From the UHGV virus genome UHGV-1677753: a stretch of 12,595 nt of DNA; one strand, given 5' to 3'. Positions within the stretch are counted from its first letter, which is position 1. Each line of letters opens with the position of its first letter. A program made the translations under genes and the position numbers. The DNA is from a virus. Shown here piece by piece: positions 1 to 12,595 of this stretch. Below the pieces are notes generated by a model that worked only from the letters and a program-made list of their open reading frames with translations, searched no databases and was not told the DNA's origin.

Positions 1-70
1 TTTTCAAGCAGAAGACGGCATACGAGATTGTTGACTGTGACTGGAGTTCAGACGTGTGCTCTTCCGATCT
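1..70. other. Synthetic Illumina TruSeq indexed adapter (P7 flow-cell sequence, 8-nt index, Read 2 primer site); not biological sequence
   Basis: Bases 5-28 read CAAGCAGAAGACGGCATACGAGAT and bases 37-70 read GTGACTGGAGTTCAGACGTGTGCTCTTCCGATCT. The 8 nt between them (29-36, TGTTGACT) sit where the index belongs; their reverse complement AGTCAACA matches TruSeq index 13 (AGTCAA) as I recall it. Genome-like sequence starts at 71. Confidence 0.93.
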
Positions 71-119
71 ATACTGTTGGAAAATCAGCTTTTTTGGTTA
101 GCAACTTTTCCAACAGTAT
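71..119. repeat. Perfect 14-bp inverted repeat (ATACTGTTGGAAAA / TTTTCCAACAGTAT) with a 21-nt spacer, immediately abutting the adapter
   Basis: Positions 71-84 are the exact reverse complement of 106-119. It lies inside the minus-strand ORF and begins at the first genomic base after the adapter. Confidence 0.85.
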
Positions 120-263
120 TGACCATTCTTTTTCATTCCCTGCTTGCACAAAACCGATTTTACATGCTCTTGCGTGACTATTGATTAGCTCAGCATCAAC
201 GCCTTTGCCAAAAACGTATCCAACGCCACAATTGGAAGCAGTACAGTTAATCATTTTTATCAT
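71..263 (-). CDS. Hypothetical small Cys-containing protein in an AT-rich segment; 3' end not trustworthy (stop codon spans the adapter junction), so probably C-terminally truncated
   Basis: ORF track 69..263 (-), 64 aa, starting MIKMINCTASNCGVGYVFGKG. The ATG at 263 is preceded on the minus strand by AAGGA with about 7-nt spacing. The TAG stop is the reverse complement of 69-71, i.e. two adapter bases plus one genome base. Composition is markedly AT-rich compared with the phage genes. I recognise no family. Confidence 0.45.
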
Positions 264-368
264 CTTCTTATCCTTAACGTTCTTCGTGGGGGTGAGATTA
301 ATCTTAATGCACCTTGAGCGAATAGTCTTCTATAAAAATATATCACTGTAAAAAAACAATTTTTTCTT

Positions 369-398
369 ACAATACAATACATTACATTACATTACATT
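369..398. repeat. Pentanucleotide tandem repeat, (ACAAT)x2 then (ACATT)x4
   Basis: Read directly: ACAAT ACAAT ACATT ACATT ACATT ACATT at 369-398, in the AT-rich segment just upstream of the HNH ribosome-binding site. Confidence 0.9.
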
Positions 399-430
399 AA
401 TGGAATCAGTAATTACACAGGAGGAATAAC

Positions 431-781
431 ATTCCGCAACGAACCCCAAAAGCCTGCCGTGTTCGCGGCTGCCGCCATACCACCACTGACCCGTCAGGCT
501 ATTGCGAAAGCCACAAAAGCGAAGGCTGGAAGCAATACAAACCTGGACAATCCCGTCATCAGCGCGGCTACGGTTCGAAGTGGGACAGTATCCGCGCGCG
601 TGTCCTGAAGCGTGACAAAGGCCTGTGTCAGTTATGTCTGCGTTCTGGTGTGGTGCGTGAGGCGAAAACTGTTGACCACATCATCCCTAAAGCGCATGGC
701 GGCACTGATGCTGACAGTAATCTGCAGAGTCTGTGCTGGCCGTGTCATAAGGCGAAGACGGCCCGTGAACGGTTAAAGTGA
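431..781 (+). CDS. HNH endonuclease, terminase-associated; start codon uncertain (no in-frame ATG/GTG/TTG, proposed ATT start at 431)
   Basis: Open frame from the TAA at 410-412 to the TGA at 779-781 translates to ...PKACRVRGCRHTTTDPSGYCESH...VDHIIPKAHGGTDADSNLQSLCWPCHKAKTARERLK, with paired Cys zinc-finger-like motifs and the HNH core (DH...N...CxxCH). It sits directly upstream of the terminase small subunit. Not in the ORF track because there is no canonical start. AGGAGG at 419-424 lies 6 nt upstream of ATT 431. Confidence 0.75.
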   Translation: MPQRTPKACRVRGCRHTTTDPSGYCESHKSEGWKQYKPGQSRHQRGYGSKWDSIRARVLKRDKGLCQLCLRSGVVREAKTVDHIIPKAHGGTDADSNLQSLCWPCHKAKTARERLK

Positions 782-807
782 TAATAATTCTCAACTGTCT
801 GAGGGGA

Positions 808-867
808 GGGGCGGGTCAAATCCCTGTGACCTGACGTCTTCCGGACTGCCCGCCCCATCGTTTTTTT
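808..867 (+). terminator. GC-rich dyad (GGGGCGGG ... CCCGCCCC) followed by a T7 run; intrinsic-terminator-like, or part of the cos site
   Basis: GGGGCGGG at 808-815 pairs with CCCGCCCC at 849-856 across a 33-nt loop, followed by TTTTTTT at 861-867. It lies in the HNH to terS intergenic region. The loop is long for a canonical terminator. Confidence 0.4.
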
Positions 868-906
868 ATACCCGCGAAAAATGAAAATTAACCAGGAGTG
901 CCGCAT

Positions 907-1392
907 ATGGCTGGAACGGCGGGGCGTTCCGGGCGTCGCCCCAAGCCAACGGCGCGCAAGGCGCTGGCCGGAAACCCCGGCAAGCGAGCCCTGAACAAAG
1001 ATGAACCTGTTTTTACGCCCATCAAAGGTGTTGAGCCACCGGAGTGGTTCGCTGAAGAAGATCTCCCTCTCGCCACGATCATGTGGCAACTGACAACCAA
1101 AGAACTCTGCGGTCAGGGCCTGCTGTGCGTGACTGACTTGGCGGTACTTGAGCGGTGGTGCGTGGCCTACGAGTTCTGGCGACGTGCCGTGAAAAATATT
1201 GCCAGACAGGGCAACACCATCACCGGTGCAATGGGTGGCATGGTCAAAAATCCGGAGCTGACCGCCAAAAAAGAACAGGAGTCCGAGATGAGCAGCACGG
1301 GGGCAATGCTCGGACTCGACCCCAGCAGCCGCCAGCGTCTGATTGGCCTGGCGGGGAAGAAGAAAGCCACTAACCCGTTTCTGACAATCTGA
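907..1392 (+). CDS. terS: Terminase small subunit (P27-like family)
   Basis: ORF track 898..1392. I place the start at ATG 907 ([30 protein letters not shown]...), with AGGAG at 894-898 about 8 nt upstream. The basic N-terminus and GNPGKR motif are typical of P27-type small terminases. Position is immediately upstream of terL. Confidence 0.85.
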
Positions 1393-1405
1393 AAATCATC
1401 GAATC

Positions 1406-3139
1406 ATGAGCCGGAAATCTTACCCCAACGTAAATGCTGCCAATCAGTATGCCCGGGATGTCGTGCGCGGAAAGATTGTGGCCTGCCAGTTTGTGATTCA
1501 GGCCTGCCAGCGCCATCTTGATGACCTGATGGCGGAAAAAAGTAAGTCGTTTCGTTACCGCTTCGACAAGGATCTGGCTGAACGGGCCGCCAAATTTATT
1601 CAGCTGTTGCCGCACACCAAGGGTGAGTGGGCATTTAAACGGATGCCCATCACGCTGGAGCCGTGGCAGCTCTTTGTGATCTGCTGCGCGTTTGGCTGGG
1701 TCAATAAAGGCTCCCGGCTGCGCCGCTTCCGTGAGGTGTATACCGAAATCCCCCGTAAGAACGGCAAATCGGCAATCTCTGCCGGTGTCGCCCTGTATTG
1801 TTTTGCCTGTGATAACGAGTTCGGCGCGGAAGTGTATTCCGGTGCCACGACGGAGAAACAGGCATGGGAAGTCTTTCGTCCGGCAAGACTGATGTGTAAA
1901 CGCACACCCATGCTGACGGAAGCGTTCGGGATTGAGGTTAACGCCTCAAACATGAACCGTCCGGAGGATGGTGCGCGTTTTGAACCGCTGATCGGTAACC
2001 CCGGTGATGGTTCATCACCCCACTGTGCGGTGGTGGATGAATATCACGAGCACGCCACAGATGCGCTTTACACCACGATGCTTACCGGGATGGGGGCGCG
2101 ACGTCAGCCACTGATGTGGGCTATCACTACCGCCGGGTACAACATTGAGGGGCCGTGCTACGACAAACGGCGGGAAGTCATCGAGATGCTCAACGGTTCG
2201 GTACCCAACGATGAACTGTTCGGGATCATCTATACCGTTGACGAAGGTGACGACTGGACCGACCCGCAGGTGCTGGAAAAAGCCAATCCAAATATTGGCG
2301 TGTCGGTTTATCGCGAATTTTTGTTAAGTCAGCAGCAGCGTGCGAAAAATAACGCCCGTCTGGCAAACGTCTTTAAAACAAAACACCTCAATATCTGGGT
2401 GTCGGCGCGTTCGGCGTATTTCAACCTGGTGAGCTGGCAGAGCTGCGAGGATAAATCACTGACTCTTGAGCAGTTCGAGGGGCAGCCGTGCATTCTGGCC
2501 TTTGACCTGGCGCGTAAGCTGGATATGAACAGCATGGCGCGACTTTATACCCGCGAGATTGACGGTAAAACGCATTACTACAGTGTGGCCCCGCGTTTCT
2601 GGGTACCGTATGACACGGTGTATAGCGTCGAGAAAAATGAAGATCGCCGGACAGCCGAACGCTTTCAGAAATGGGTGGAAATGGGCGTTCTGACCGTTAC
2701 CGATGGTGCAGAGGTGGATTATCGCTACATCCTCGAAGAGGCCAAAGCGGCGAACAAAATCAGCCCGGTCAGTGAGTCACCCATCGACCCTTTCGGAGCG
2801 ACCGGGCTGTCACATGACCTTGCTGATGAAGACCTGAATCCCGTTACTATCGTCCAGAACTTCGCCAATATGTCCGACCCGATGAAAGAGCTGGAGGCAG
2901 CGATTGAATCGGGACGCTTTCATCATGACGGCAATCCCATCATGACCTGGTGTATCGGCAATGTGGTCGGCAAAAACATGCCAGGTAACGATGATTTAGT
3001 GAAGCCCGTCAAAGAGCAGGCGGAAAACAAAATCGATGGTGCAGTTGCGCTGATTATGGCGGTTGGCAGAGCCATGCTGTACGAGAAAGAAGACATGCTG
3101 TCTGACCACATTGAGTCCTATGGGATCCGCTCGCTTTAA
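1406..3139 (+). CDS. terL: Terminase large subunit (ATPase plus nuclease)
   Basis: 577-aa ORF. It has a Walker A-like P-loop ([10 protein letters not shown]) and a Walker B-like motif ([10 protein letters not shown]). Size and position between terS and portal fit. Confidence 0.95.
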
Positions 3140-3150
3140 CTGAGGTAATT

Positions 3151-3333
3151 ATGATCATGCTGATTCTCGCGCCTCTGGTGGGCGTGCTGGGGGCGCTTTT
3201 GCTGGCGTATGGTGCCTGGCTGATTTATCCCCCGGCGGGGTTTGTTGTTGCCGGGGCGTTGTGTCTGTTCTGGTCGTGGCTGGTGGCGCGATATCTCGAC
3301 CGTACACAGTCGTCTGTCGGCGGAGGTAAATAG
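3151..3333 (+). CDS. Small hydrophobic protein with two predicted transmembrane helices (hypothetical)
   Basis: 60-aa [68 protein letters not shown] lies 4 nt upstream of ATG 3151. Its TAG stop (3331-3333) overlaps the portal GTG start. Confidence 0.5.
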
Positions 3334-4574
3334 TGTTCTTTTCGGGATTATTTCAACGAAAAAGTGACGCACCGGTGACCACGCCAGCAGAGCTGGCGGA
3401 TGCTATCGGGTTGTCCTACGACACCTATACCGGAAAGCAGATCAGCAGCCAGCGGGCCATGCGACTGACGGCGGTTTTTTCCTGTGTCAGGGTGCTGGCG
3501 GAGTCGGTCGGGATGTTGCCCTGCAACCTGTATCACCTGAACGGCAGTCTGAAGCAGAGAGCCGCTGGCGAACGTCTGCATAAGCTGATCTCCACGCATC
3601 CCAATGGCTATATGACGCCGCAGGAGTTCTGGGAGCTGGTGGTCACCTGTCTGTGCCTGCGGGGAAACTTTTACGCCTACAAAGTGAAAGCATTTGGCGA
3701 AGTGGCTGAACTGCTGCCCGTCGATCCCGGCTGTGTGGTACCGAAGCTTAACAGTAGCTGGGAGCCGGTCTATCAGGTCACATTCCCGGACGGCTCTACG
3801 GATGTACTGAGCCAGGAAGATATCTGGCATGTGCGCACGCTGACGCTGGACGGTCTGGTGGGGCTGAATCCCATCGCCTATGCCCGCGAGGCAATATCGC
3901 TGGCAGCTGCGACCGAAGAGCACGGGGCCAGACTGTTCAGCAATGGTGCGGTGACGTCCGGTGTGTTGCGTACAGAGCAGACGCTGTCGGATCAGGCTTA
4001 TGAGCGCCTGAAGAAAGATTTTGAGGAGCGTCACACCGGGCTTGGCAATGCTCACCGCCCGATGATCCTTGAGATGGGGCTGGACTGGAAGTCGATGGCG
4101 CTGAACGCCGAGGACAGCCAGTTCCTGGAAACCCGCAAGTTTCAGCTTGAAGAAATCTGTCGTCTGTTCCGGGTGCCGTTGCACATGGTGCAGAACACCG
4201 ATCGCGCCACCTTCAACAATATCGAAGAGCTGGGGCTGGGATTTATCAACTATTCACTGGTGCCGTATCTGACCCGCATCGAACAGCGGATCAACACCGG
4301 ACTGGTACGAAAAAGTAAGCAGGGCGTTTATTACGCCAAATTTAACGCCGGGGCGTTACTGCGCGGGGATATGAAGTCCCGTTTTGAAGCCTACGCCACC
4401 GGGATCAACTGGGGAATTTACTCTCCCAATGACTGCCGCGACCTGGAAGATATGAATCCGCGTCCCGGTGGTGATGTCTATCTCACACCGATGAACATGA
4501 CCACGAAACCCTCCGATGGCAGTAAAGCCGGTAAGCAGAAGGATAACGCCAATGCAGACGAAACAACGTCTTGA
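3333..4574 (+). CDS. Portal protein (HK97-like family)
   Basis: 413-aa ORF directly after terL and before the prohead protease. GTG start at 3333 with GGAGG at 3322-3326 (6-nt spacing). Size and synteny are typical of HK97-type portals. Confidence 0.92.
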   Translation: MFFSGLFQRKSDAPVTTPAELADAIGLSYDTYTGKQISSQRAMRLTAVFSCVRVLAESVGMLPCNLYHLNGSLKQRAAGERLHKLISTHPNGYMTPQEFWELVVTCLCLRGNFYAYKVKAFGEVAELLPVDPGCVVPKLNSSWEPVYQVTFPDGSTDVLSQEDIWHVRTLTLDGLVGLNPIAYAREAISLAAATEEHGARLFSNGAVTSGVLRTEQTLSDQAYERLKKDFEERHTGLGNAHRPMILEMGLDWKSMALNAEDSQFLETRKFQLEEICRLFRVPLHMVQNTDRATFNNIEELGLGFINYSLVPYLTRIEQRINTGLVRKSKQGVYYAKFNAGALLRGDMKSRFEAYATGINWGIYSPNDCRDLEDMNPRPGGDVYLTPMNMTTKPSDGSKAGKQKDNANADETTS

Positions 4575-5202
4575 TGTACCGCTGAGTCTGAAATCTGTCA
4601 GTGACTCCGGGGAGTTTGAAGGGTATGGCTCCGTCTTTGGTGTAAAGGACAGCCACGATGATGTGGTGATGTCCGGGGCATTTGCTGCTTCCCTGCGGGC
4701 GTGGAGTGACAGAAAAGCGTTACCTGCGCTGCTCTGGCAGCACCGCATGGATGAGCCCATCGGTGTTTACACCGAAATGAAGGAAGACGATGTCGGGCTT
4801 TACGTCAGGGGGCGGTTGCTCATTGATGATGATCCCCTGGCAAAACGCGCACATGCACACATGAAGGCCGGTTCGTTAACCGGCCTTTCTATTGGGTACG
4901 TCCTGAAAGACTGGGAATACGACCGGAGCAAAGAAGCCTTTCTGCTGAAAGAAATCGACCTCTGGGAAGTCAGCCTGGTGACGTTCCCGTCTAACGACGA
5001 GGCGCGGATCAGCGACGTCAAGAACGCACTGGCCCGCGGGGAAATCCCCGAACAGAAAAAAATCGAAAGAGTCCTGCGTGATGTCGGACTCTCCCGTACC
5101 CAGGCCAAAGCATTCATGGCCGGGGGCTATGGCGCACTGTCCCTGCGCGACGCTGAGGATGTGGGCTCTGCACTGAATGCACTGAAAAATCTGAACTTCT
5201 AA
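4552..5202 (+). CDS. Prohead (capsid maturation) protease, HK97-like
   Basis: ORF track 4516..5202. I prefer ATG 4552 (MQTKQRLDVPLSLKSVSDSGEFEGYGSVFG...) because AAGGA at 4539-4543 precedes it. Sits between portal and major capsid protein. About 216 aa. Confidence 0.88.
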   Translation: MQTKQRLDVPLSLKSVSDSGEFEGYGSVFGVKDSHDDVVMSGAFAASLRAWSDRKALPALLWQHRMDEPIGVYTEMKEDDVGLYVRGRLLIDDDPLAKRAHAHMKAGSLTGLSIGYVLKDWEYDRSKEAFLLKEIDLWEVSLVTFPSNDEARISDVKNALARGEIPEQKKIERVLRDVGLSRTQAKAFMAGGYGALSLRDAEDVGSALNALKNLNF

Positions 5203-5216
5203 TCAGGAGAAATACG

Positions 5217-6422
5217 ATGGCGGTTGATATTAAAGATGTCGAACAGGTCGCGCAGGAGCTGCAGCAGAAGTTTGACGACTTCAAAGCAAAGAACGACAAG
5301 CGCGTGGATGCGATTGAGCAGGAAAAAGGCAAACTTGCCGGGCAGGTGGAAACCCTGAACGGGAAACTCAGCGAGCTGGAAAACCTCAAAAGCGATCTTG
5401 AAAAAGAGCTGCTTGAGCTGAAACGTCCGGCAGGTGGTGCGCAAAATAAACTGGCCACCGAGCATAAAGAAGCGTTTGTGGGCTTCCTGCGTAAAGGCCG
5501 TGAAGATGGTCTGCGCGATCTGGAGCGCAAGGCATTACAGGTGGGCACCGATGAAGACGGCGGCTATGCCGTGCCGGAAGCACTGGATCGCAACATTCTC
5601 ACCCTGCTGAAAGATGAAGTGGTGATGCGCCAGGAAGCCACGGTGATCACCGTTGGTGGTTCCGACTACAAAAAACTGGTGAATCTGGGCGGCACGGCTT
5701 CCGGATGGGTTGGCGAGACTGACGCGCGCTCCCAGACTGCCACCTCAAAACTGGGCCTGATTGAACCTTTCATGGGGGAAATCTACGGTAACCCGCAGGC
5801 CACCCAGAAAATGCTGGATGATGCCTTTTTCAACGTGGAAGCATGGATCAACAGCGAGCTGGCAACCGAATTTGCCGAACAGGAAGAAATTGCCTTTACC
5901 ACCGGCGATGGTACCAAGAAGCCGAAAGGGTTCCTGGCGTATGAATCCACGGATGAAACCGACAAGGTCCGGGCGTTCGGCAAACTTCAGCATATTGTAT
6001 CCGGCGAAGCGACCGCGGTGACCGCAGACGCCATTATCAAACTGATTTACACGCTGCGTAAGGCACACCGCACTGGCGCGAAGTTCATGATGAACAACAA
6101 CAGCCTGTTTGCCATCCGTCTGCTGAAAGACACCGAGGGTAACTATCTGTGGCGTCCGGGGCTGGAGCTGGGGCAGCCGTCCTCTCTGGCGGGTTACGGT
6201 ATCGCTGAAAACGAACAGATGCCGGATATCGCCGCTGATGCGAAAGCCATTGCATTTGGTAACTTCAAACGGGGTTACACCATCGTTGACCGTATCGGCA
6301 CCCGCATTCTGCGTGACCCGTACACCAATAAACCGTTTGTCGGTTTTTATACCACCAAGCGCACCGGCGGGATGCTGGTCGATTCGCAGGCCATCAAACT
6401 GCTGAAGATTGCAGCGGCGTAA
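5217..6422 (+). CDS. Major capsid protein, HK97 fold, with N-terminal coiled-coil delta (scaffold-like) domain
   Basis: 401-aa ORF with AGGAG before ATG 5217. The N-terminal ~100 aa are coiled-coil-like (KFDDFKAKNDKRVDAIEQEKGKLAGQVETLNGKLSELENLKSDLEKELLELK), as in HK97-type capsid proteins that carry their own scaffold domain. No separate scaffold gene is present, consistent with that. Confidence 0.93.
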   Translation: MAVDIKDVEQVAQELQQKFDDFKAKNDKRVDAIEQEKGKLAGQVETLNGKLSELENLKSDLEKELLELKRPAGGAQNKLATEHKEAFVGFLRKGREDGLRDLERKALQVGTDEDGGYAVPEALDRNILTLLKDEVVMRQEATVITVGGSDYKKLVNLGGTASGWVGETDARSQTATSKLGLIEPFMGEIYGNPQATQKMLDDAFFNVEAWINSELATEFAEQEEIAFTTGDGTKKPKGFLAYESTDETDKVRAFGKLQHIVSGEATAVTADAIIKLIYTLRKAHRTGAKFMMNNNSLFAIRLLKDTEGNYLWRPGLELGQPSSLAGYGIAENEQMPDIAADAKAIAFGNFKRGYTIVDRIGTRILRDPYTNKPFVGFYTTKRTGGMLVDSQAIKLLKIAAA

Positions 6423-6429
6423 TCACTCA

Positions 6430-6457
6430 GGGGCGCGGAACCGCGCCCCCTGTTCTG
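6430..6457 (+). terminator. Stem-loop (GGGGCGCGG-AA-CCGCGCCCC) followed by TGTTCT; putative intrinsic terminator/attenuator after the capsid gene
   Basis: Perfect 9-bp GC-rich inverted repeat at 6430-6438 / 6441-6449, starting 8 nt after the capsid stop codon. The downstream T-tract is weak (CTGTTCTG). Confidence 0.5.
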
Positions 6458-6471
6458 ACGGGTGAAGAATC

Positions 6472-6672
6472 ATGATCCTGAAACAAGATCTGAAATGGTC
6501 ACCGGACGGTATGCGTGTTGAGGTCATTCGGGCCGGTGAGTATGACGACGGGGCGCTTCCTGCCCGGGTGCAGGAGATTGCACTTCAGGCCGGGTTAGCA
6601 GAGCGCGGAACCAGTGCAAAAAGCAGTAAAGCGACAAAAGAGAAAAAAGCCACGACCAGTAAAGAGGGCTGA
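6472..6672 (+). CDS. Hypothetical small protein with Lys/Ser/Thr-rich C-terminal tail
   Basis: 66-aa ORF MILKQDLKWSPDGMRVEVIRAGEYDDGALPARVQEIALQAGLAERGTSAKSSKATKEKKATTSKEG. ATG 6472 follows GGTGA. Its stop overlaps the ribosome-binding site and start of the next gene. Confidence 0.5.
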   Translation: MILKQDLKWSPDGMRVEVIRAGEYDDGALPARVQEIALQAGLAERGTSAKSSKATKEKKATTSKEG

Positions 6673-6674
6673 GT

Positions 6675-6998
6675 ATGCTTCTGACAATGGAAGAGATTAA
6701 AGCCCAACTCCGGCTGGATGAGGATTTCGATGCTGATGACCGCCATCTGCAACTGCTGGCCTGTGCGGCACAAAAGCGGACGGAAACGTATCTGAACCGG
6801 AAGCTCTATGCACCGGATGAAACCATTCCGGACAGCGATCCGGACGGGCTGCACCTGCCGGATGATATTCGTCTGGGGATGCTGATGCTTATCAGCCATT
6901 TTTACGAAAACCGCTCGTCGGTTACGGAAGTGGAGAAACTCGACATGCCGCAGAGTTTTGGCTGGCTTGTCGGCCCGTACAGGTACTTTCCGCAATGA
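6675..6998 (+). CDS. Head-tail connector protein (gp6-like)
   Basis: 107-aa ORF MLLTMEEIKAQLRLDEDFDADDRHLQLLACAAQKRTETYL..., matching the gp6-like connector N-terminal pattern as I recall it. AGAGGG precedes ATG 6675. Position after the capsid gene. Confidence 0.78.
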   Translation: MLLTMEEIKAQLRLDEDFDADDRHLQLLACAAQKRTETYLNRKLYAPDETIPDSDPDGLHLPDDIRLGMLMLISHFYENRSSVTEVEKLDMPQSFGWLVGPYRYFPQ

Positions 6999-7405
6999 AA
7001 ATTCGTCAGGCGCAGACCAGCGCAACCTACATTCTGCCGGACCCCGGTGAACTGAATAAACGCGTCCTGATCCGCCAGCGGGTGGATATGCCCGCGGATA
7101 ACTTTGGCGTGGAGTCTCAATACCCGGTTACGTTCCGGACATGGGCGAAGGTTATCCAGACCAGTGCCACCACCTGGCAGGAAACCGCGCAGACCGGGGA
7201 CGCCATCACCCATTACATCACCATTCGTTACCGCCGGGGGATCACTGCTGATTATGAGGTGGTCTGTGATGACAGTGTGTACCGGGTGAAACGTCAGCGT
7301 GATCTGAACGGGGCGCGGCGCTTTCTGCTGCTGGAGTGTACGGAGCTGGGCGAATGTAGGCAGAGTCACGGAGGCAGCAATGGCGACTCCCTTTTTTCAC
7401 GTTGA
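6995..7405 (+). CDS. Head closure / head-tail adaptor protein
   Basis: 136-aa ORF whose start overlaps the previous stop (ATGA at 6995-6998). Size and position are typical of the head closure protein in HK97/SPP1-like modules. Confidence 0.7.
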   Translation: MKIRQAQTSATYILPDPGELNKRVLIRQRVDMPADNFGVESQYPVTFRTWAKVIQTSATTWQETAQTGDAITHYITIRYRRGITADYEVVCDDSVYRVKRQRDLNGARRFLLLECTELGECRQSHGGSNGDSLFSR

Positions 7406-7886
7406 TGTTCAGCAGCCCGCCGAGATGCGCTTTAACCGCGCCCGTGTCCGGCGGGCGTTTGTCACGATTGGGCAGCGTCATATGCGTGATGCCCGTCGGC
7501 TGGTGATGCGCCGTGCGCGGTCGGCACCGGGTGAAAACCCCGGTTATCAGACCGGACGCCTGGCTCGTTCGATTGGTTATATGGTGCCGAGAGCCAGTAA
7601 AAAGCGAGCCGGTTTTATGACACGCATTGCCCCTAACCAGCGCAACGGGAAGGGGAACCGGATGATCTCTGGTGACTTCTATCCGGCGTTTCTGTTTTTT
7701 GGTGTCCGGGGAGGAGCAAAACGTCGTCGTAGTCATCATCGTGGTGCATCCGGTGGCAGCGGCTGGCGACTGGCTCCACGTAATAACTTCATGGTGGAAA
7801 CGCTTGAAAAGAACCGCAGCTGGACACGCTATTTTCTGGCGCGGGAATTGCGTAAATCACTGAAGCCGGAGCGACGACACAGATGA
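7380..7886 (+). CDS. HK97 gp10-like head-tail joining/neck protein, strongly basic (Arg-rich)
   Basis: 168-aa ORF with GGAGG 5 nt before ATG 7380. It contains PGENPGYQTGRLARSIGY, resembling the conserved TG-L--SI motif of the gp10 family as I recall it. It carries a Gly/Arg/His-rich segment (GGAKRRRSHHRGASGGSGW). Confidence 0.65.
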   Translation: MATPFFHVDVQQPAEMRFNRARVRRAFVTIGQRHMRDARRLVMRRARSAPGENPGYQTGRLARSIGYMVPRASKKRAGFMTRIAPNQRNGKGNRMISGDFYPAFLFFGVRGGAKRRRSHHRGASGGSGWRLAPRNNFMVETLEKNRSWTRYFLARELRKSLKPERRHR

Positions 7887-8443
7887 AACTGACGCCTGTT
7901 ATTGCTGCGCTGCGTGCCCGCTGCCCGTATTTTGAAAACCGGGTGGCAGGCGCGGCACAGTTCAAAAATCTGCCGGAGGTCGGAAAGCTGAGACTCCCGG
8001 CGGCGTATGTGGTACCGGGTGATGACTCTCCGGGAGAAAACAAAAGCCAGACCGACTACTGGCAGGAGCTGAAAGAGGGCTTCTCCGTGGTTGTCATACT
8101 AAGTAACGGGCGTGATGAGCGCGGTCAGTTTGCCTCGTATGATGTGGTGGACGATGTCCGGCAGATGCTCTTTAAGGCCCTGCTGGGCTGGAACCCGGAA
8201 GCGTGCGGTAACCCGATTACCTATGACGGCGGCACGCTGCTGGATCTGAATCGTCATGAGCTGATTTATCAGTTCGATTTTTCGGTCATCAGCGAGCTGA
8301 CTGAAGACGATACCCGCCAGCAGGATGATCTGAACAGTCTGGATGAACTGCAAACGCTGGCGATTGATGTTGATTATCTCGAGCCCGGTAACGGGCCTGA
8401 CGGCGATATCGAACATCACACCGAAATAACTCTTCCTTCCTGA
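7883..8443 (+). CDS. Putative neck/tail terminator-like protein of the contractile-tail module (hypothetical)
   Basis: 186-aa ORF whose start overlaps the previous stop (ATGA). Located between the head-completion genes and the tail sheath. Acidic C-terminus. The functional call is from position only. Confidence 0.55.
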   Translation: MKLTPVIAALRARCPYFENRVAGAAQFKNLPEVGKLRLPAAYVVPGDDSPGENKSQTDYWQELKEGFSVVVILSNGRDERGQFASYDVVDDVRQMLFKALLGWNPEACGNPITYDGGTLLDLNRHELIYQFDFSVISELTEDDTRQQDDLNSLDELQTLAIDVDYLEPGNGPDGDIEHHTEITLPS

Positions 8444-8451
8444 GGATCCTC

Positions 8452-8622
8452 ATGTTTGTCAAACCTGTTAAAGGGCGGTCAGTTCCTGACCCTGCCCGCG
8501 GCGACCTTTTGCCCGCCGAAGGGCGAAATGTTGACGAGAACAACTACTGGCTGCGCCGTGAAGTAGCGGGTGATATCCGGCGCGTGAATAAAAAGGTGAA
8601 CACCGATGACGATAAGCTTTAA
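8452..8622 (+). CDS. Small 56-aa protein immediately upstream of, and overlapping, the tail sheath gene (hypothetical)
   Basis: ATG 8452 is preceded by GAGGA (8442-8446, 5-nt spacing). Translates MFVKPVKGRSVPDPARGDLLPAEGRNVDENNYWLRREVAGDIRRVNKKVNTDDDKL and ends at TAA 8620-8622, overlapping the sheath start by 17 nt. Absent from the ORF track because it is under 60 aa. From memory, small conserved proteins occupy this position in Mu-like tail modules. Confidence 0.5.
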   Translation: MFVKPVKGRSVPDPARGDLLPAEGRNVDENNYWLRREVAGDIRRVNKKVNTDDDKL

Positions 8623-10102
8623 CACCATTCCGTCGAATACGCTGGTTCCGCTGTTTTATGCGGAAATGGATAATCAGGCGGCGAATACTGCACAGGACAG
8701 CGGAGCATCGCTGCTGATTGGTCATGCCAATAACGGTGCAGAGATTGTTGCCAACAGTCTGGTACTGATGCCGTCGGCAGACTATGCACGCCAGATTTGT
8801 GGTGCGGGAAGTCAGCTGGCGCGTATGGTTGAGGCTTATCGCCAGACCGACCCGTTTGGCGAGCTGTATGTGATTGCCGTTCCTGAATCCACAGGCGCGG
8901 CGGCAACGGTTACGCTGACGGTGACCGGGGCGGCAACCGAAACCGGCACGGTGAATGTCTATGTGGGACGTACCCGCGTGCAGGCTCCGGTGACCAACGG
9001 CGATAACGTCACGACGATTGCCAGCAGTATCAAAGATGCCATCAATGCCGTTCCGGCCCTGCCGTTTACGGCTTCATCTTCGGCAGGCGTGGTCACACTG
9101 ACCGCGCGTCATAAGGGGCTTTGCGGGAATGAAATTCCTGTCAGCCTCAATTACTACGGCTTTGGTGGGGGCGAAGTGCTGCCAGCGGGCGTACAGATTG
9201 CCGTGGCGACGGGTACCGCCGGAACGGGTGCTCCGGTTCTCACCGGCGCGGTGGCTGCAATGGCGGATGAGCCGTTTGATTATATCGGTCTGCCGTTCAA
9301 CGACACGGCCTCCGTTAACACGCTGGTGACCGAGATGAACGATACCAGCGGTCGCTGGAGCTATGCGCGTCAGCTGTATGGTCATGTGTATACGGCAAAG
9401 ATCGGCACGCTGTCAGAACTGGTGACCGCAGGTGACCAGTTTAACCAGCAGCACATTACCCTGGCGGGGTACGAAAAAGAGACCCAGACGCCTGCCGACG
9501 AACTGGCGGCAAGCCGTACCGCCCGCGCAGCGGTGTTTATTCGCAACGATCCGGCACGTCCCACGCAGACCGGTGAGCTGGTGGGTATGCTGCCTGCGCC
9601 GAAGGGGAAACGGTTCACGATGACCGAACAACAGACCCTGCTGTCTCATGGCGTGGCAACGGCGTATGTCGAAAGCGGGGTACTGCGCATTCAGCGTGAT
9701 GTCACCACGTACAGGAAAAACGCTTACGGGATTGCGGATAACAGCTACCTAGACAGTGAGACTCTGCATACCAGCTCGTATGTACTGCGCAAACTGAAAT
9801 CCGTCATTACCAGTAAGTACGGGCGTCACAAGCTTGCCAGTGACGGTACCCGCTTTGGTCCCGGTCAGGCGATTGTCACCCCGGCGGTGATCAAAGGGGA
9901 ACTGCTGGCAACCTACCGTCAGCTTGAGCGTGCGGGGATCGTGGAAAACTACGAACTGTTTAAGCAGTACCTGGTTGTGGAGCGTGATGCCAGCGATCCG
10001 AACCGCCTGAACACGCTGTTCCCGCCTGACTATGTTAACCAGTTGCGTGTCTTTGCCGTGGTTAACCAGTTCCGTCTTCAGTATTCAGAGGAGTCTGCAT
10101 AA
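8606..10102 (+). CDS. Contractile tail sheath protein
   Basis: 498-aa ORF directly followed by a 118-aa tube gene, a frameshifted chaperone and a tape measure gene. AAGGTG precedes ATG 8606. Size and synteny fit a sheath protein. Confidence 0.85.
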   Translation: MTISFNTIPSNTLVPLFYAEMDNQAANTAQDSGASLLIGHANNGAEIVANSLVLMPSADYARQICGAGSQLARMVEAYRQTDPFGELYVIAVPESTGAAATVTLTVTGAATETGTVNVYVGRTRVQAPVTNGDNVTTIASSIKDAINAVPALPFTASSSAGVVTLTARHKGLCGNEIPVSLNYYGFGGGEVLPAGVQIAVATGTAGTGAPVLTGAVAAMADEPFDYIGLPFNDTASVNTLVTEMNDTSGRWSYARQLYGHVYTAKIGTLSELVTAGDQFNQQHITLAGYEKETQTPADELAASRTARAAVFIRNDPARPTQTGELVGMLPAPKGKRFTMTEQQTLLSHGVATAYVESGVLRIQRDVTTYRKNAYGIADNSYLDSETLHTSSYVLRKLKSVITSKYGRHKLASDGTRFGPGQAIVTPAVIKGELLATYRQLERAGIVENYELFKQYLVVERDASDPNRLNTLFPPDYVNQLRVFAVVNQFRLQYSEESA

Positions 10103-10458
10103 TGGCCCGTATCGGGGGAACCTGTTATTTCAAAATTGACGGTCAGCAGCTATCGCTGACCGGCGGCATTGAGGTGCCCATGAACAGGACGGTCAATGAT
10201 GACATCATCGGCCTGGACGGTTCAGTGGACCGCAAGGAAACTCACCGTGCGCCTTATGTCAAAGGGACCTTCAAGGTGCCGAAGAATTTTCCGGTGAGCA
10301 AAATCACCTCGTCTGATGAGATGACTATCACTGCCGAGCTGGCGAACGGTCAGGTCTATGTATTGTCGTCCGCCTGGCTGCACGGAGAAGCGAACCATAA
10401 TGCCGAAGAAGGCACGGTTGATCTTGAGTTCCACGGTGAAGAAGGGGATTACCAGTAA
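10102..10458 (+). CDS. Tail tube protein
   Basis: 118-aa ORF. Its start overlaps the sheath stop (TAATG) with GAGGAG 7 nt upstream. Position between sheath and chaperone. Confidence 0.8.
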   Translation: MARIGGTCYFKIDGQQLSLTGGIEVPMNRTVNDDIIGLDGSVDRKETHRAPYVKGTFKVPKNFPVSKITSSDEMTITAELANGQVYVLSSAWLHGEANHNAEEGTVDLEFHGEEGDYQ

Positions 10459-10727
10459 TGAAAGAGCTTGAGTTAAAGAAACCGATTATCGCTCATGGTG
10501 AGACACTCTCCGTACTGGAGTTTGATGAACCCACCGGGAAGGATGTCCGCGAGCTGGGGTATCCCTACCAGATGAATCAGGATGAGTCCGTCAGACTTCT
10601 GGCGCATGTGGTGTCGAAATACATTGTGCGGCTGGCGAAAGTGCCGCAAAGCTCTGTCGACCAGATGTCTCCGGCAGACCTGAATGCAGCGGCGTGGCTT
10701 GTGGCTGGTTTTTTCCTCCAGGCCTGA
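10458..10727 (+). CDS. Tail assembly chaperone, short (G-like) form
   Basis: 89-aa ORF starting at the TAATG overlap with the tube gene. It lies immediately upstream of the tape measure gene and ends 12 nt after a TTTTTTC slippery heptamer. Confidence 0.8.
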   Translation: MKELELKKPIIAHGETLSVLEFDEPTGKDVRELGYPYQMNQDESVRLLAHVVSKYIVRLAKVPQSSVDQMSPADLNAAAWLVAGFFLQA

Positions 10728-10876
10728 CGGCTGAATACCTCACTGATCGCTTCTTTGACTGCGCCAGCTACTGGCGCATTAATCCCTTCGAATTGCTGAA
10801 TATGCCGATCAGTGAAATTCCCTTGCTGGTCAGTCAGGCAAACAGGATAGAGCAGGAGAAACGCACACATGGCTGA
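10458..10876 (+). CDS. Tail assembly chaperone, long (GT-like) form produced by -1 programmed ribosomal frameshift at 10709-10715
   Basis: The -1 frame is open from the slip site to TGA 10874-10876 (ORF track 10694..10876: ...FFPPGLTAEYLTDRFFDCASYWRINPFELLNMPISEIPLLVSQANRIEQEKRTHG). The slippery sequence T_TTT_TTC is in the correct zero-frame phase (codons TTT 10710-10712, TTC 10713-10715). The extended product ends overlapping the tape measure start. Confidence 0.65.
10709..10715 (+). other. Slippery heptamer T_TTT_TTC (X_XXY_YYZ) for -1 programmed frameshifting
   Basis: Read directly at 10709-10715, in phase with the chaperone zero frame and 4 codons before its stop. Confidence 0.65.
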
Positions 10877-12536
10877 ATTTGAGCTTAAGGCGTTGATCAC
10901 CGGTGTCGACAGGCTTTCTCCCGCGCTGTCGAAAATGCAAAAGAAAATCCGGGGATTTAAACGCCAGGCGGAAGAAGCGTCACAGGGTGGGCTGGCGCTT
11001 GGTGGCGGACTGGCAGCGGGTCTGACGCTTTCCCTGAAATCTTATGCCGATCAGGAAAACGCCGCCACCGGGCTGAAAGTTGCCATGATGGATGCGAACG
11101 GTGAGGTCGGAAAGAGCTTTCAGGACATCAATAAACTGGCTATTGGTCTGGGTAACCAGCTACCCGGTACAACGGCTGATTTTCAGAACATGATGCAGAT
11201 GCTGGTGCGTCAGGGGATCCCGGCAGAAAACATTCTTGGCGGTGTGGGTAAAGCGACAGCTTATCTTGCGGTACAACTGAAAAAAACACCGGAAGCGGCT
11301 GCCGAGTTTGCCGCAAAGATGCAGGATGCTACCGGAACGGCGTCAGAAGACATGATGGGGCTGTTCGACACTATCCAGAAGGCGTTTTATCTGGGCGTTG
11401 ACGATACCAACATGTTGTCCTTCTTCACTAAAACCAGTTCTGTTCTGAAGATGGTGAACAAGGACGGTCTTCAGGCTGCACAGAGCCTTGCCCCCATCAG
11501 CGTCATGATGGATCAGATGGGGATGAACGGGGAGTCGGCAGGTAATGCCCTGCGAAAAGTTATCCAGTCCGGATTAAGCGTTAAGAAAATCAGGGACGTT
11601 AATAAAGTTATGGCCCGCCAGAAACTCGGGGTACAGCTCGATTTTACTGACGGCAAAGGGAGTTTTGGCGGTCTTGATAACATGTTTAAGCAACTGGCAA
11701 AGCTGCGAAAATTGACCGACGTTAAGCGAACCGGTGTACTTAAGGCAATATTTGGTGATGATGCCGAAACCCTTCAGGTGGTCAATGCTCTGATCGATAA
11801 AGGAAAGGATGGTTACGATCAGATCCAGCAGAAGATGAATAAACAGGCCAGCCTGAATAAACGTGTTCAGGCACAGCTTGGTACGCTGTCCAACCTGTGG
11901 GAGGCAATGACGGGGACCGCAACTAACGGTCTTGCAGCTATTGGCGGCGCATTTTCTGGTGACGCTAAAAATATCACGCAATGGCTGGGGGAGTTGGGGG
12001 AAAAATTCACGAAGTTTGCGGATGAAAATCCCCGGGTTATTCGCGGCGTCGTCGGGCTTGCTGCCGGTCTTGCGATTCTGAAACTGGGATTGATGGGCGT
12101 GGGCGGTGCCATCAGCATTGTCAGCAGGATCATGTCGATGACGCCGATTGGCATGATTGCGACGGCGATAGCCCTGGCTGCGGGATTAATTATCACTAAC
12201 TGGGATGTTGTCGGACCTTATTTCAAGAAGCTCTGGGAAACCATTGGTCCTTATTTTGAGGCTGGCTGGGAACTCCTTAAGAAAGTTTTTGCCTGGTCGC
12301 CGCTGGGGATGGTGATCAATAACTGGGGGCCGGTTGTTAAGTGGTTTCAGGATATGTGGGACAAGCTGAAGCCAATTATTGAGTGGTTTACCGACAGTTC
12401 CGGTGACACGGTCGATGCCATTAACTCTGCGCAGTGGGGCGCGGGTGCTTATGATGCTTATGGGACGGGAATACCGGCACGGGGATACACTCCTTATCCG
12501 GCGGTGGATCCGGCTCAGTACCGCATAATACGATAA
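10869..12536 (+). CDS. Tail tape measure protein
   Basis: 555-aa ORF immediately after the G/GT chaperone pair. Ala/Gly-rich and largely helical in character, with hydrophobic segments near the C-terminus and periodic Trp/Phe repeats (WDVVGPYFKKL / WETIGPYFEAG). Its start overlaps the GT stop. Confidence 0.85.
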   Translation: MAEFELKALITGVDRLSPALSKMQKKIRGFKRQAEEASQGGLALGGGLAAGLTLSLKSYADQENAATGLKVAMMDANGEVGKSFQDINKLAIGLGNQLPGTTADFQNMMQMLVRQGIPAENILGGVGKATAYLAVQLKKTPEAAAEFAAKMQDATGTASEDMMGLFDTIQKAFYLGVDDTNMLSFFTKTSSVLKMVNKDGLQAAQSLAPISVMMDQMGMNGESAGNALRKVIQSGLSVKKIRDVNKVMARQKLGVQLDFTDGKGSFGGLDNMFKQLAKLRKLTDVKRTGVLKAIFGDDAETLQVVNALIDKGKDGYDQIQQKMNKQASLNKRVQAQLGTLSNLWEAMTGTATNGLAAIGGAFSGDAKNITQWLGELGEKFTKFADENPRVIRGVVGLAAGLAILKLGLMGVGGAISIVSRIMSMTPIGMIATAIALAAGLIITNWDVVGPYFKKLWETIGPYFEAGWELLKKVFAWSPLGMVINNWGPVVKWFQDMWDKLKPIIEWFTDSSGDTVDAINSAQWGAGAYDAYGTGIPARGYTPYPAVDPAQYRIIR

Positions 12537-12595
12537 TTATTACGTGCGAAATAGTCTTCACGTTCACGATAGTAAGAAGTATTGTATTTGCGAAT

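Follow-up and report, generated by a model that had tools for sequence, protein, structure and literature searches.

Prophage module and accessory segment

The analysis of the window, by which we mean the whole 12,595-nt stretch of DNA, reveals the packaging, head and tail module of an SfV-like prophage between two short terminal stretches of other origin (Table 1). An exact-protein look-up with the two end ORFs identified the window as the entire contig NODE_1411_length_12595_cov_6.715610 of ENA ERZ773425. When the whole window was compared by megablast with 5,426 complete E. coli genomes, positions 81-12519 were recovered from many of the chromosomes as one collinear piece with an identity of about 98%. 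In the annotation, holin/lysis functions lie upstream and are followed by a hypothetical gene, an HNH endonuclease, a P27-family TerS, TerL, YmfR and the portal gene, after which come an HK97-type protease, capsid, sheath, tube and tape measure.

In phage records, this module has its relatives in the temperate Shigella/E. coli phages SfII, SfIV, SfV, SfI and the like. The SfV/SfII/SfIV-like phages share with it the common order of HNH, TerS (P27 family), TerL, portal, protease, capsid and contractile tail, at 96-98% nucleotide identity over TerS, TerL and onward. They differ at the left, where the window's AT-rich segment from 81 to about 430, with its 112-aa hypothetical gene, is shared by only a minority of related prophages; many homology matches begin only at window position 420-440 or thereabouts, in relatives without this accessory segment. 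The contig is an internal fragment of an ordinary and well-known SfV-like E. coli prophage module, and the metagenome also holds Phocaeicola.

Table 1. Features of the window and the evidence on which each assignment is based (a dot in the strand column marks features without orientation).
Feature	Position	Strand	Evidence or remark
TTTT	1..4	-	AAAA on the strand the sequencer read; likely calls made once the read had gone past P7
P7 flow-cell attachment sequence CAAGCAGAAGACGGCATACGAGAT	5..28	-	Exact, 24/24; part of TruSeq Adapter Index 13
Index block TGTTGACT	29..36	-	Reverse complement AGTCAACA = index 13 (AGTCAA) + fixed CA
Read-2 / index-read primer site GTGACTGGAGTTCAGACGTGTGCTCTTCCGATCT	37..70	-	Exact, 34/34; base 70 presumably the T-overhang / A-tail base
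False 64-aa ORF	69..263	-	61 codons of the WP_000594256.1 N-terminus + 3 artefact codons (PTV) + TAG
Most likely fold-back (inverted duplication) of 110-119, 10 nt	71..80	.	Reverse complement; absent from relatives; new hairpin
AAAA microhomology, complementary to TTTT at 106-109; probable fold-back seed	81..84	.	First bases common with the real genome
Packaging, head and tail module of SfV-like E. coli prophage	81..12519	+	Megablast collinearity; Pfam labels of called genes
Foreign 77-nt tail from a Phocaeicola vulgatus SusD/RagB-family gene	12519..12595	-	Overlap of 0-1 nt with the tape-measure gene at the junction

Within the accessory segment, an AT-rich intergenic stretch (264-430, 31-40% GC) separates the divergent hypothetical gene from the HNH gene. 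It contains a pentanucleotide tandem run at 367-399, of the form (ACAAT)2(ACATT)4 or close to it, and an imperfect 19-nt inverted repeat pairs 242-260 with 332-350. This stretch is probably the promoter or regulatory region of the moron-like segment from 81 to about 430. The HNH endonuclease gene at 431-781 on the plus strand encodes an intact protein of 116 aa (PF01844, E = 1e-16) without an ATG, GTG or TTG start; in RefSeq the same DNA is annotated with an ATT start codon, and an AGGAGG at 420-425 lies 5 nt upstream. The gene is uncalled on the ENA contig and absent from the program-made ORF list. The idea, suggested by that absence, that it might be disrupted was ruled out, the DNA being identical to the annotated intact gene with the ATT start.

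Sequencing adapter at the left contig end

Exact string matching against the published table confirmed that the first 70 bases of the contig are an untrimmed Illumina TruSeq index-13 adapter (TruSeq Adapter, Index 13; PMC10000876). The tested sequence was GATCGGAAGAGCACACGTCTGAACTCCAGTCAC-AGTCAA-CA-ATCTCGTATGCCGTCTTCTGCTTG, whose reverse complement is present at full length at 5-69 (65 of 65 bases), and the identity rises to 66 of 66 once the T at base 70 is counted; an exact match of 66 bases has a chance probability of 4^-66, i.e., coincidence is excluded. An earlier note on this DNA had read positions 5-70 as P7, index and Read 2 primer site and the first 70 bases as library-construction sequence rather than genome, and the exact match bears out both its coordinates and its description. 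One detail has to be adjusted: the block that it called an 8-nt index is real, but it consists of a 6-nt index, AGTCAA, followed by a fixed CA. TruSeq indices 13 and above carry these two fixed bases after the 6-nt index.

The window thus begins with TTTT, CAAGCAGAAGACGGCATACGAGAT, TGTTGACT and GTGACTGGAGTTCAGACGTGTGCTCTTCCGATCT in this order and then passes to ATACTG. Between adapter and insert stands a single T (base 70), with non-adapter sequence directly after it, and we take this base to be the T that pairs with the insert's A-tail, following established TruSeq ligation chemistry. No 11-mer of either TruSeq adapter, on either strand, occurs elsewhere in the window. The adapter occupies the contig terminus with P7 distal and pointing outward, and the homopolymer TTTT alone lies beyond it. 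These four bases, for which the earlier note had given no explanation, appear to belong to the same artefact as the adapter and look like poly-A read after adapter run-off; on the sequenced strand, the AAAA would presumably represent no-template A calls, which fits 4-colour Illumina chemistry. This reading is drawn by analogy, because the terminal T's number only four, fewer than in most IMG/VR examples.

Adapters in other contigs and genomes

The analogy comes from a scan of IMG/VR for the P7 24-mer, which returned at least 120 contigs, with 122 occurrences among the matches listed. Within that set, P7 points outward within 200 nt of the locus end in 116 of 122 occurrences (median distance 10 nt), TTTT forms the four bases outside P7 in 101 of 122, and the index block TGTTGACT recurs in 3 adapter-tipped contigs. 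The window therefore shares with many IMG/VR contigs the same sequence, the terminal and outward placement and the poly-T cap that mark TruSeq read-through contamination, here with index 13. It carries 4 terminal T's as against 10-12 in many other adapter-tipped examples, and otherwise nothing essential differs. Adapter contamination at contig ends has been reported as widespread in the MGnify genome catalogues despite reported trimming (PMC11536531), and the contamination in the window is of the same class.

Several related cases came to light in the same searches. Adapters stand at both ends of two IMG/VR contigs (L051 and L066). A few others carry an internal P7 (L019 at 3251, L029 at 1443 and L048 at 7495), which suggests adapter-mediated misjoins. 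The RefSeq "complete genome" of E. coli SK0832 (NZ_AP046542.1) contains an internal poly-T, P7, the index TTCGCGGA and a Read-2 site at chromosome positions 2224655-2224746 (L130, 1480-1571), between cheB and cheY. Similar partial adapter matches occur in the complete E. coli chromosomes NZ_AP040990.1, NZ_AP040927.1, NZ_CP157243.1 (within the tail sheath gene) and NZ_LR882052.1 (within kdpA).

The junction between adapter and prophage

Phage-collinear sequence starts at base 81, with the exact join ambiguous within 81-84. The relatives compared at this junction comprised 13 complete E. coli genomes holding 81-130 together with 6 sequences read base by base, namely E. coli CDF6 (itself one of the 13 chromosomes), one JGI metagenome contig and four IMG/VR contigs. 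In 13 of 13 complete genomes, the match over 81-130 is 100% and starts exactly at 81, and in all 6 of the sequences inspected base by base the place of 71-80 is taken by one and the same natural stretch, gtaaagactc. Specifically, the natural sequence in these six runs ...cagtaaagactc directly before AAAATCAGC, and the window has ATACTGTTGG at that place; where the window has 71-80, the relatives carry GTAAAGACTC. Counted in this way, 19 of 19 relatives are 100% identical over 81-130 and part from the window exactly at base 81, and the bases 71-80 were absent from all 19 relatives checked. The homologous genomes are continuous past the point where the adapter begins, since 6 relatives continue leftward past base 81 with one common sequence. 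Position 71, which the earlier note had regarded as a true contig or read end, is the end of the library insert, but the 13 genomes and 6 sequences place the start of collinear genome at 81; the caution that the note advised for features within the first 120 nt or so was justified.

This observation is further strengthened by the internal structure of the stretch. Bases 71-84 are the exact reverse complement of 106-119, and 71-80 are hence an inverted copy of 110-119; in the natural sequence, only the AAAA/TTTT part (4 bp) of this inverted relation exists. After the adapter's GATCT, the start of the insert reads ATACTGTTGGAAAATCAGC. A search of IMG/VR for the junction between adapter and insert gave no match. 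The window version of 71-119 is predicted to fold into a 14-bp hairpin (-12.6 kcal/mol, z = -6.0); the natural 49-mer is predicted to be unstructured (-1.6 kcal/mol, z = +0.7). The stem is not conserved among the relatives, as it would be for an intrinsic terminator or structural hairpin, its left arm being missing from them. The most likely explanation of bases 71-80 is a library chimera formed by fold-back, with AAAA/TTTT as the seed. Inverted-repeat chimeric reads that arise during library preparation have been described and modelled as "PDSM", with the aberrant part at the read end (PMC10908179). The present case resembles them in that a short inverted repeat links the original strand to the reverse complement of nearby sequence at the end of the read or insert; it differs in the seeding inverted repeat, which measures 4 bp here as against a total of at least 8 bp in the filter of that study.

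The junction has a direct effect on the ORF at 69..263. By BLASTP, residues 1-61 of its product are identical to the 112-aa hypothetical prophage protein WP_000594256.1 and residues 62-64 differ, these last (PTV) being encoded by the fold-back copy. The reverse complement of c69-t70-a71 gives the TAG stop, and the earlier statement that this stop is built from adapter bases thus applies to two of its three bases (69 and 70), the third (a71) belonging to the fold-back, and the last three sense codons are artefactual in addition. The true gene runs 51 codons beyond the 61 genuine codons of the ORF. An exact look-up over 153 billion indexed gene positions found the 64-aa product on record in this contig only. 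Neither the 112-aa hypothetical protein nor its truncated form matched a Pfam family.

Foreign DNA at the right contig end

The earlier account leaves out the opposite end of the contig, where 12519-12595 is also foreign DNA. Homology to E. coli tape-measure genes ends at 12518/12519, and the remaining 76-77 bases have 34% GC. Queries of 76-91 nt covering the tail gave no significant match in the 5,426 complete E. coli genomes and in phage records, and comparison with the rest of the window returned chance 10-mers only, among them the likeness of GCGAAATAGTCTTC in the tail to GCGAATAGTCTTC at 318-330, which we set aside as such. A degenerate pattern derived from the open minus-strand frame of the tail was then searched in a collection of species-representative genomes and led to six Bacteroidales-type contigs. 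The tail is identical at 77 of 77 bases to positions 6372-6448 of a Phocaeicola vulgatus contig (L007) and 79-90% identical to other Bacteroides and Tannerellaceae; in P. vulgatus the surrounding ORF encodes a 529-aa SusD/RagB-family lipoprotein (SusD_RagB, PF07980, E = 1e-43). The PhiX spike-in and an IS element, both considered as sources of the tail, were dropped, given the lack of a phage or E. coli match and the 100% match to P. vulgatus. The same SusD-family stretch is also present at 100% identity in a MAG labelled "uncultured Veillonella sp." (CAAEOZ010000044.1, L005, 7462-7538), where it is probably a binning contaminant.

The tail supplies a stop codon at 12534-12536, by which the ORF at 10869..12536 on the plus strand is falsely cut, and the resulting 555-aa chimeric product is likewise on record in this contig only (153 billion gene positions indexed). 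The end belongs with the inter-genome chimeric contig tips, in this instance an E. coli phage gene joined to Phocaeicola vulgatus DNA with a false stop as the outcome. The overlap of 0-1 nt at the junction between tape measure and SusD gene points to a ligation-type chimeric molecule, as opposed to the usual misassembly at a shared repeat or a graph join through a shared k-mer.

Origin of the two ends

Taken together, both ends are almost certainly library or assembly artefacts, i.e., adapter read-through and fold-back on the left and an inter-genome chimera on the right. We are equally confident that the window is one whole contig of low coverage, assembled in metaSPAdes style from incompletely adapter-trimmed reads of a gut-type metagenome. 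We infer the wet-lab step behind each chimera, as well as the platform chemistry, along the following lines. On the left, the assembler would have taken in a read that came from a TruSeq library molecule with a short insert; this read, on the minus strand, would have left the insert at the A-tail base, crossed the Read-2 site, index and P7 of the complete index-13 adapter and ended in four no-template A's. The contig stops at the adapter because nothing can overlap beyond an adapter. The insert itself would be chimeric, its last 10 bases repeating in inverted form those located 30-39 nt inward. In a fold-back of the "PDSM" type, a single-stranded 3' end in ...TTTT may have paired with AAAA on the like strand and been filled in by 10 nt during end repair, with A-tailing and adapter ligation to follow. 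On the right, a chimeric molecule or read would join the tape-measure gene to P. vulgatus DNA essentially without homology.

Several other readings of the left end were weighed against this one. That 71-80 is real, with a mosaic boundary or natural terminator hairpin setting the source phage apart here and the fragment ending there by chance, we consider very improbable. Phage genomes are mosaic, the AT-rich, moron-like accessory segment at 71-400 is missing in many relatives, and the hairpin at 71-119 is thermodynamically strong; however, all 19 relatives, for all their 100% identity over 81-130, diverge at exactly 81, the ten bases form a perfect inverted copy of adjacent sequence flush with the adapter, and as real sequence they would break a conserved 112-aa ORF at codon 62 and yield a product found in no other contig. 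An origin of 71-80 from an unrelated fragment would make the match to 110-119 coincidental, and although ten bases are too few for a sequence search alone to decide, the probability of such a coincidence is only about 1e-6 for that register. It is also scarcely credible that a phage-derived molecule in the sample, such as a replication intermediate that had been processed or had broken, really ended in a hairpin or snap-back at 71-119 and received the adapter at this physical end; the 10-nt inverted copy would then have a biological origin instead of stemming from end repair. As for the adapter, the notion that it is genuine environmental or engineered DNA, such as a synthetic construct or carry-over, integrated in the phage genome is virtually impossible: it has the presence of the sequence itself in its favour and nothing more, and it is contradicted by the position at the extreme contig end, outward and with a poly-T cap as in more than 100 unrelated IMG/VR contigs, by the commercial index carried, and by the unbroken phage sequence of the relatives across this point.

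A different question is whether the fold-back and the right-hand chimera were made purely by the assembler, through traversal of reverse-complement k-mers and a shared-k-mer join, with no physical chimeric molecule involved. Bidirected de Bruijn graphs do yield hairpin-like contig tips, coverage was low (6.7x), and the part of the fold-back common with the genome, 39 nt, would suffice at k=21 or k=33. We nevertheless regard this origin as unlikely, since the phage and P. vulgatus sequences overlap by 0-1 nt and hence share no k-mer, the self-complementarity of AAAA/TTTT (4 bases) is far below any k in use, and the adapter directly abuts the fold-back copy, so that adapter and inverted copy must have stood together in one read or more. 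The choice between assembler and library is a sub-question of mechanism, and the verdict of artefact is unchanged by it.

Implications for annotation

The finding is a known kind of artefact and holds no biological novelty; contigs tipped with adapter abound in public data and have been documented before, and its importance is one of data hygiene only. Left untrimmed, the two ends have given rise to two false proteins that already stand in public protein collections as unique sequences and should be disregarded, namely the 64-aa ORF ending in PTV with its adapter-built stop and the 555-aa "tape measure" with an antisense Bacteroidales end. Cutting at the adapter boundary alone is insufficient, because the insert adjoining an adapter can itself be chimeric; positions 1-80 and 12520-12595 need to be trimmed before annotation. 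When terminal repeats, hairpins or terminators are sought, untrimmed ends could likewise be misleading, and the 77 nt of Phocaeicola DNA on an E. coli phage contig could mislead the assignment of its host.
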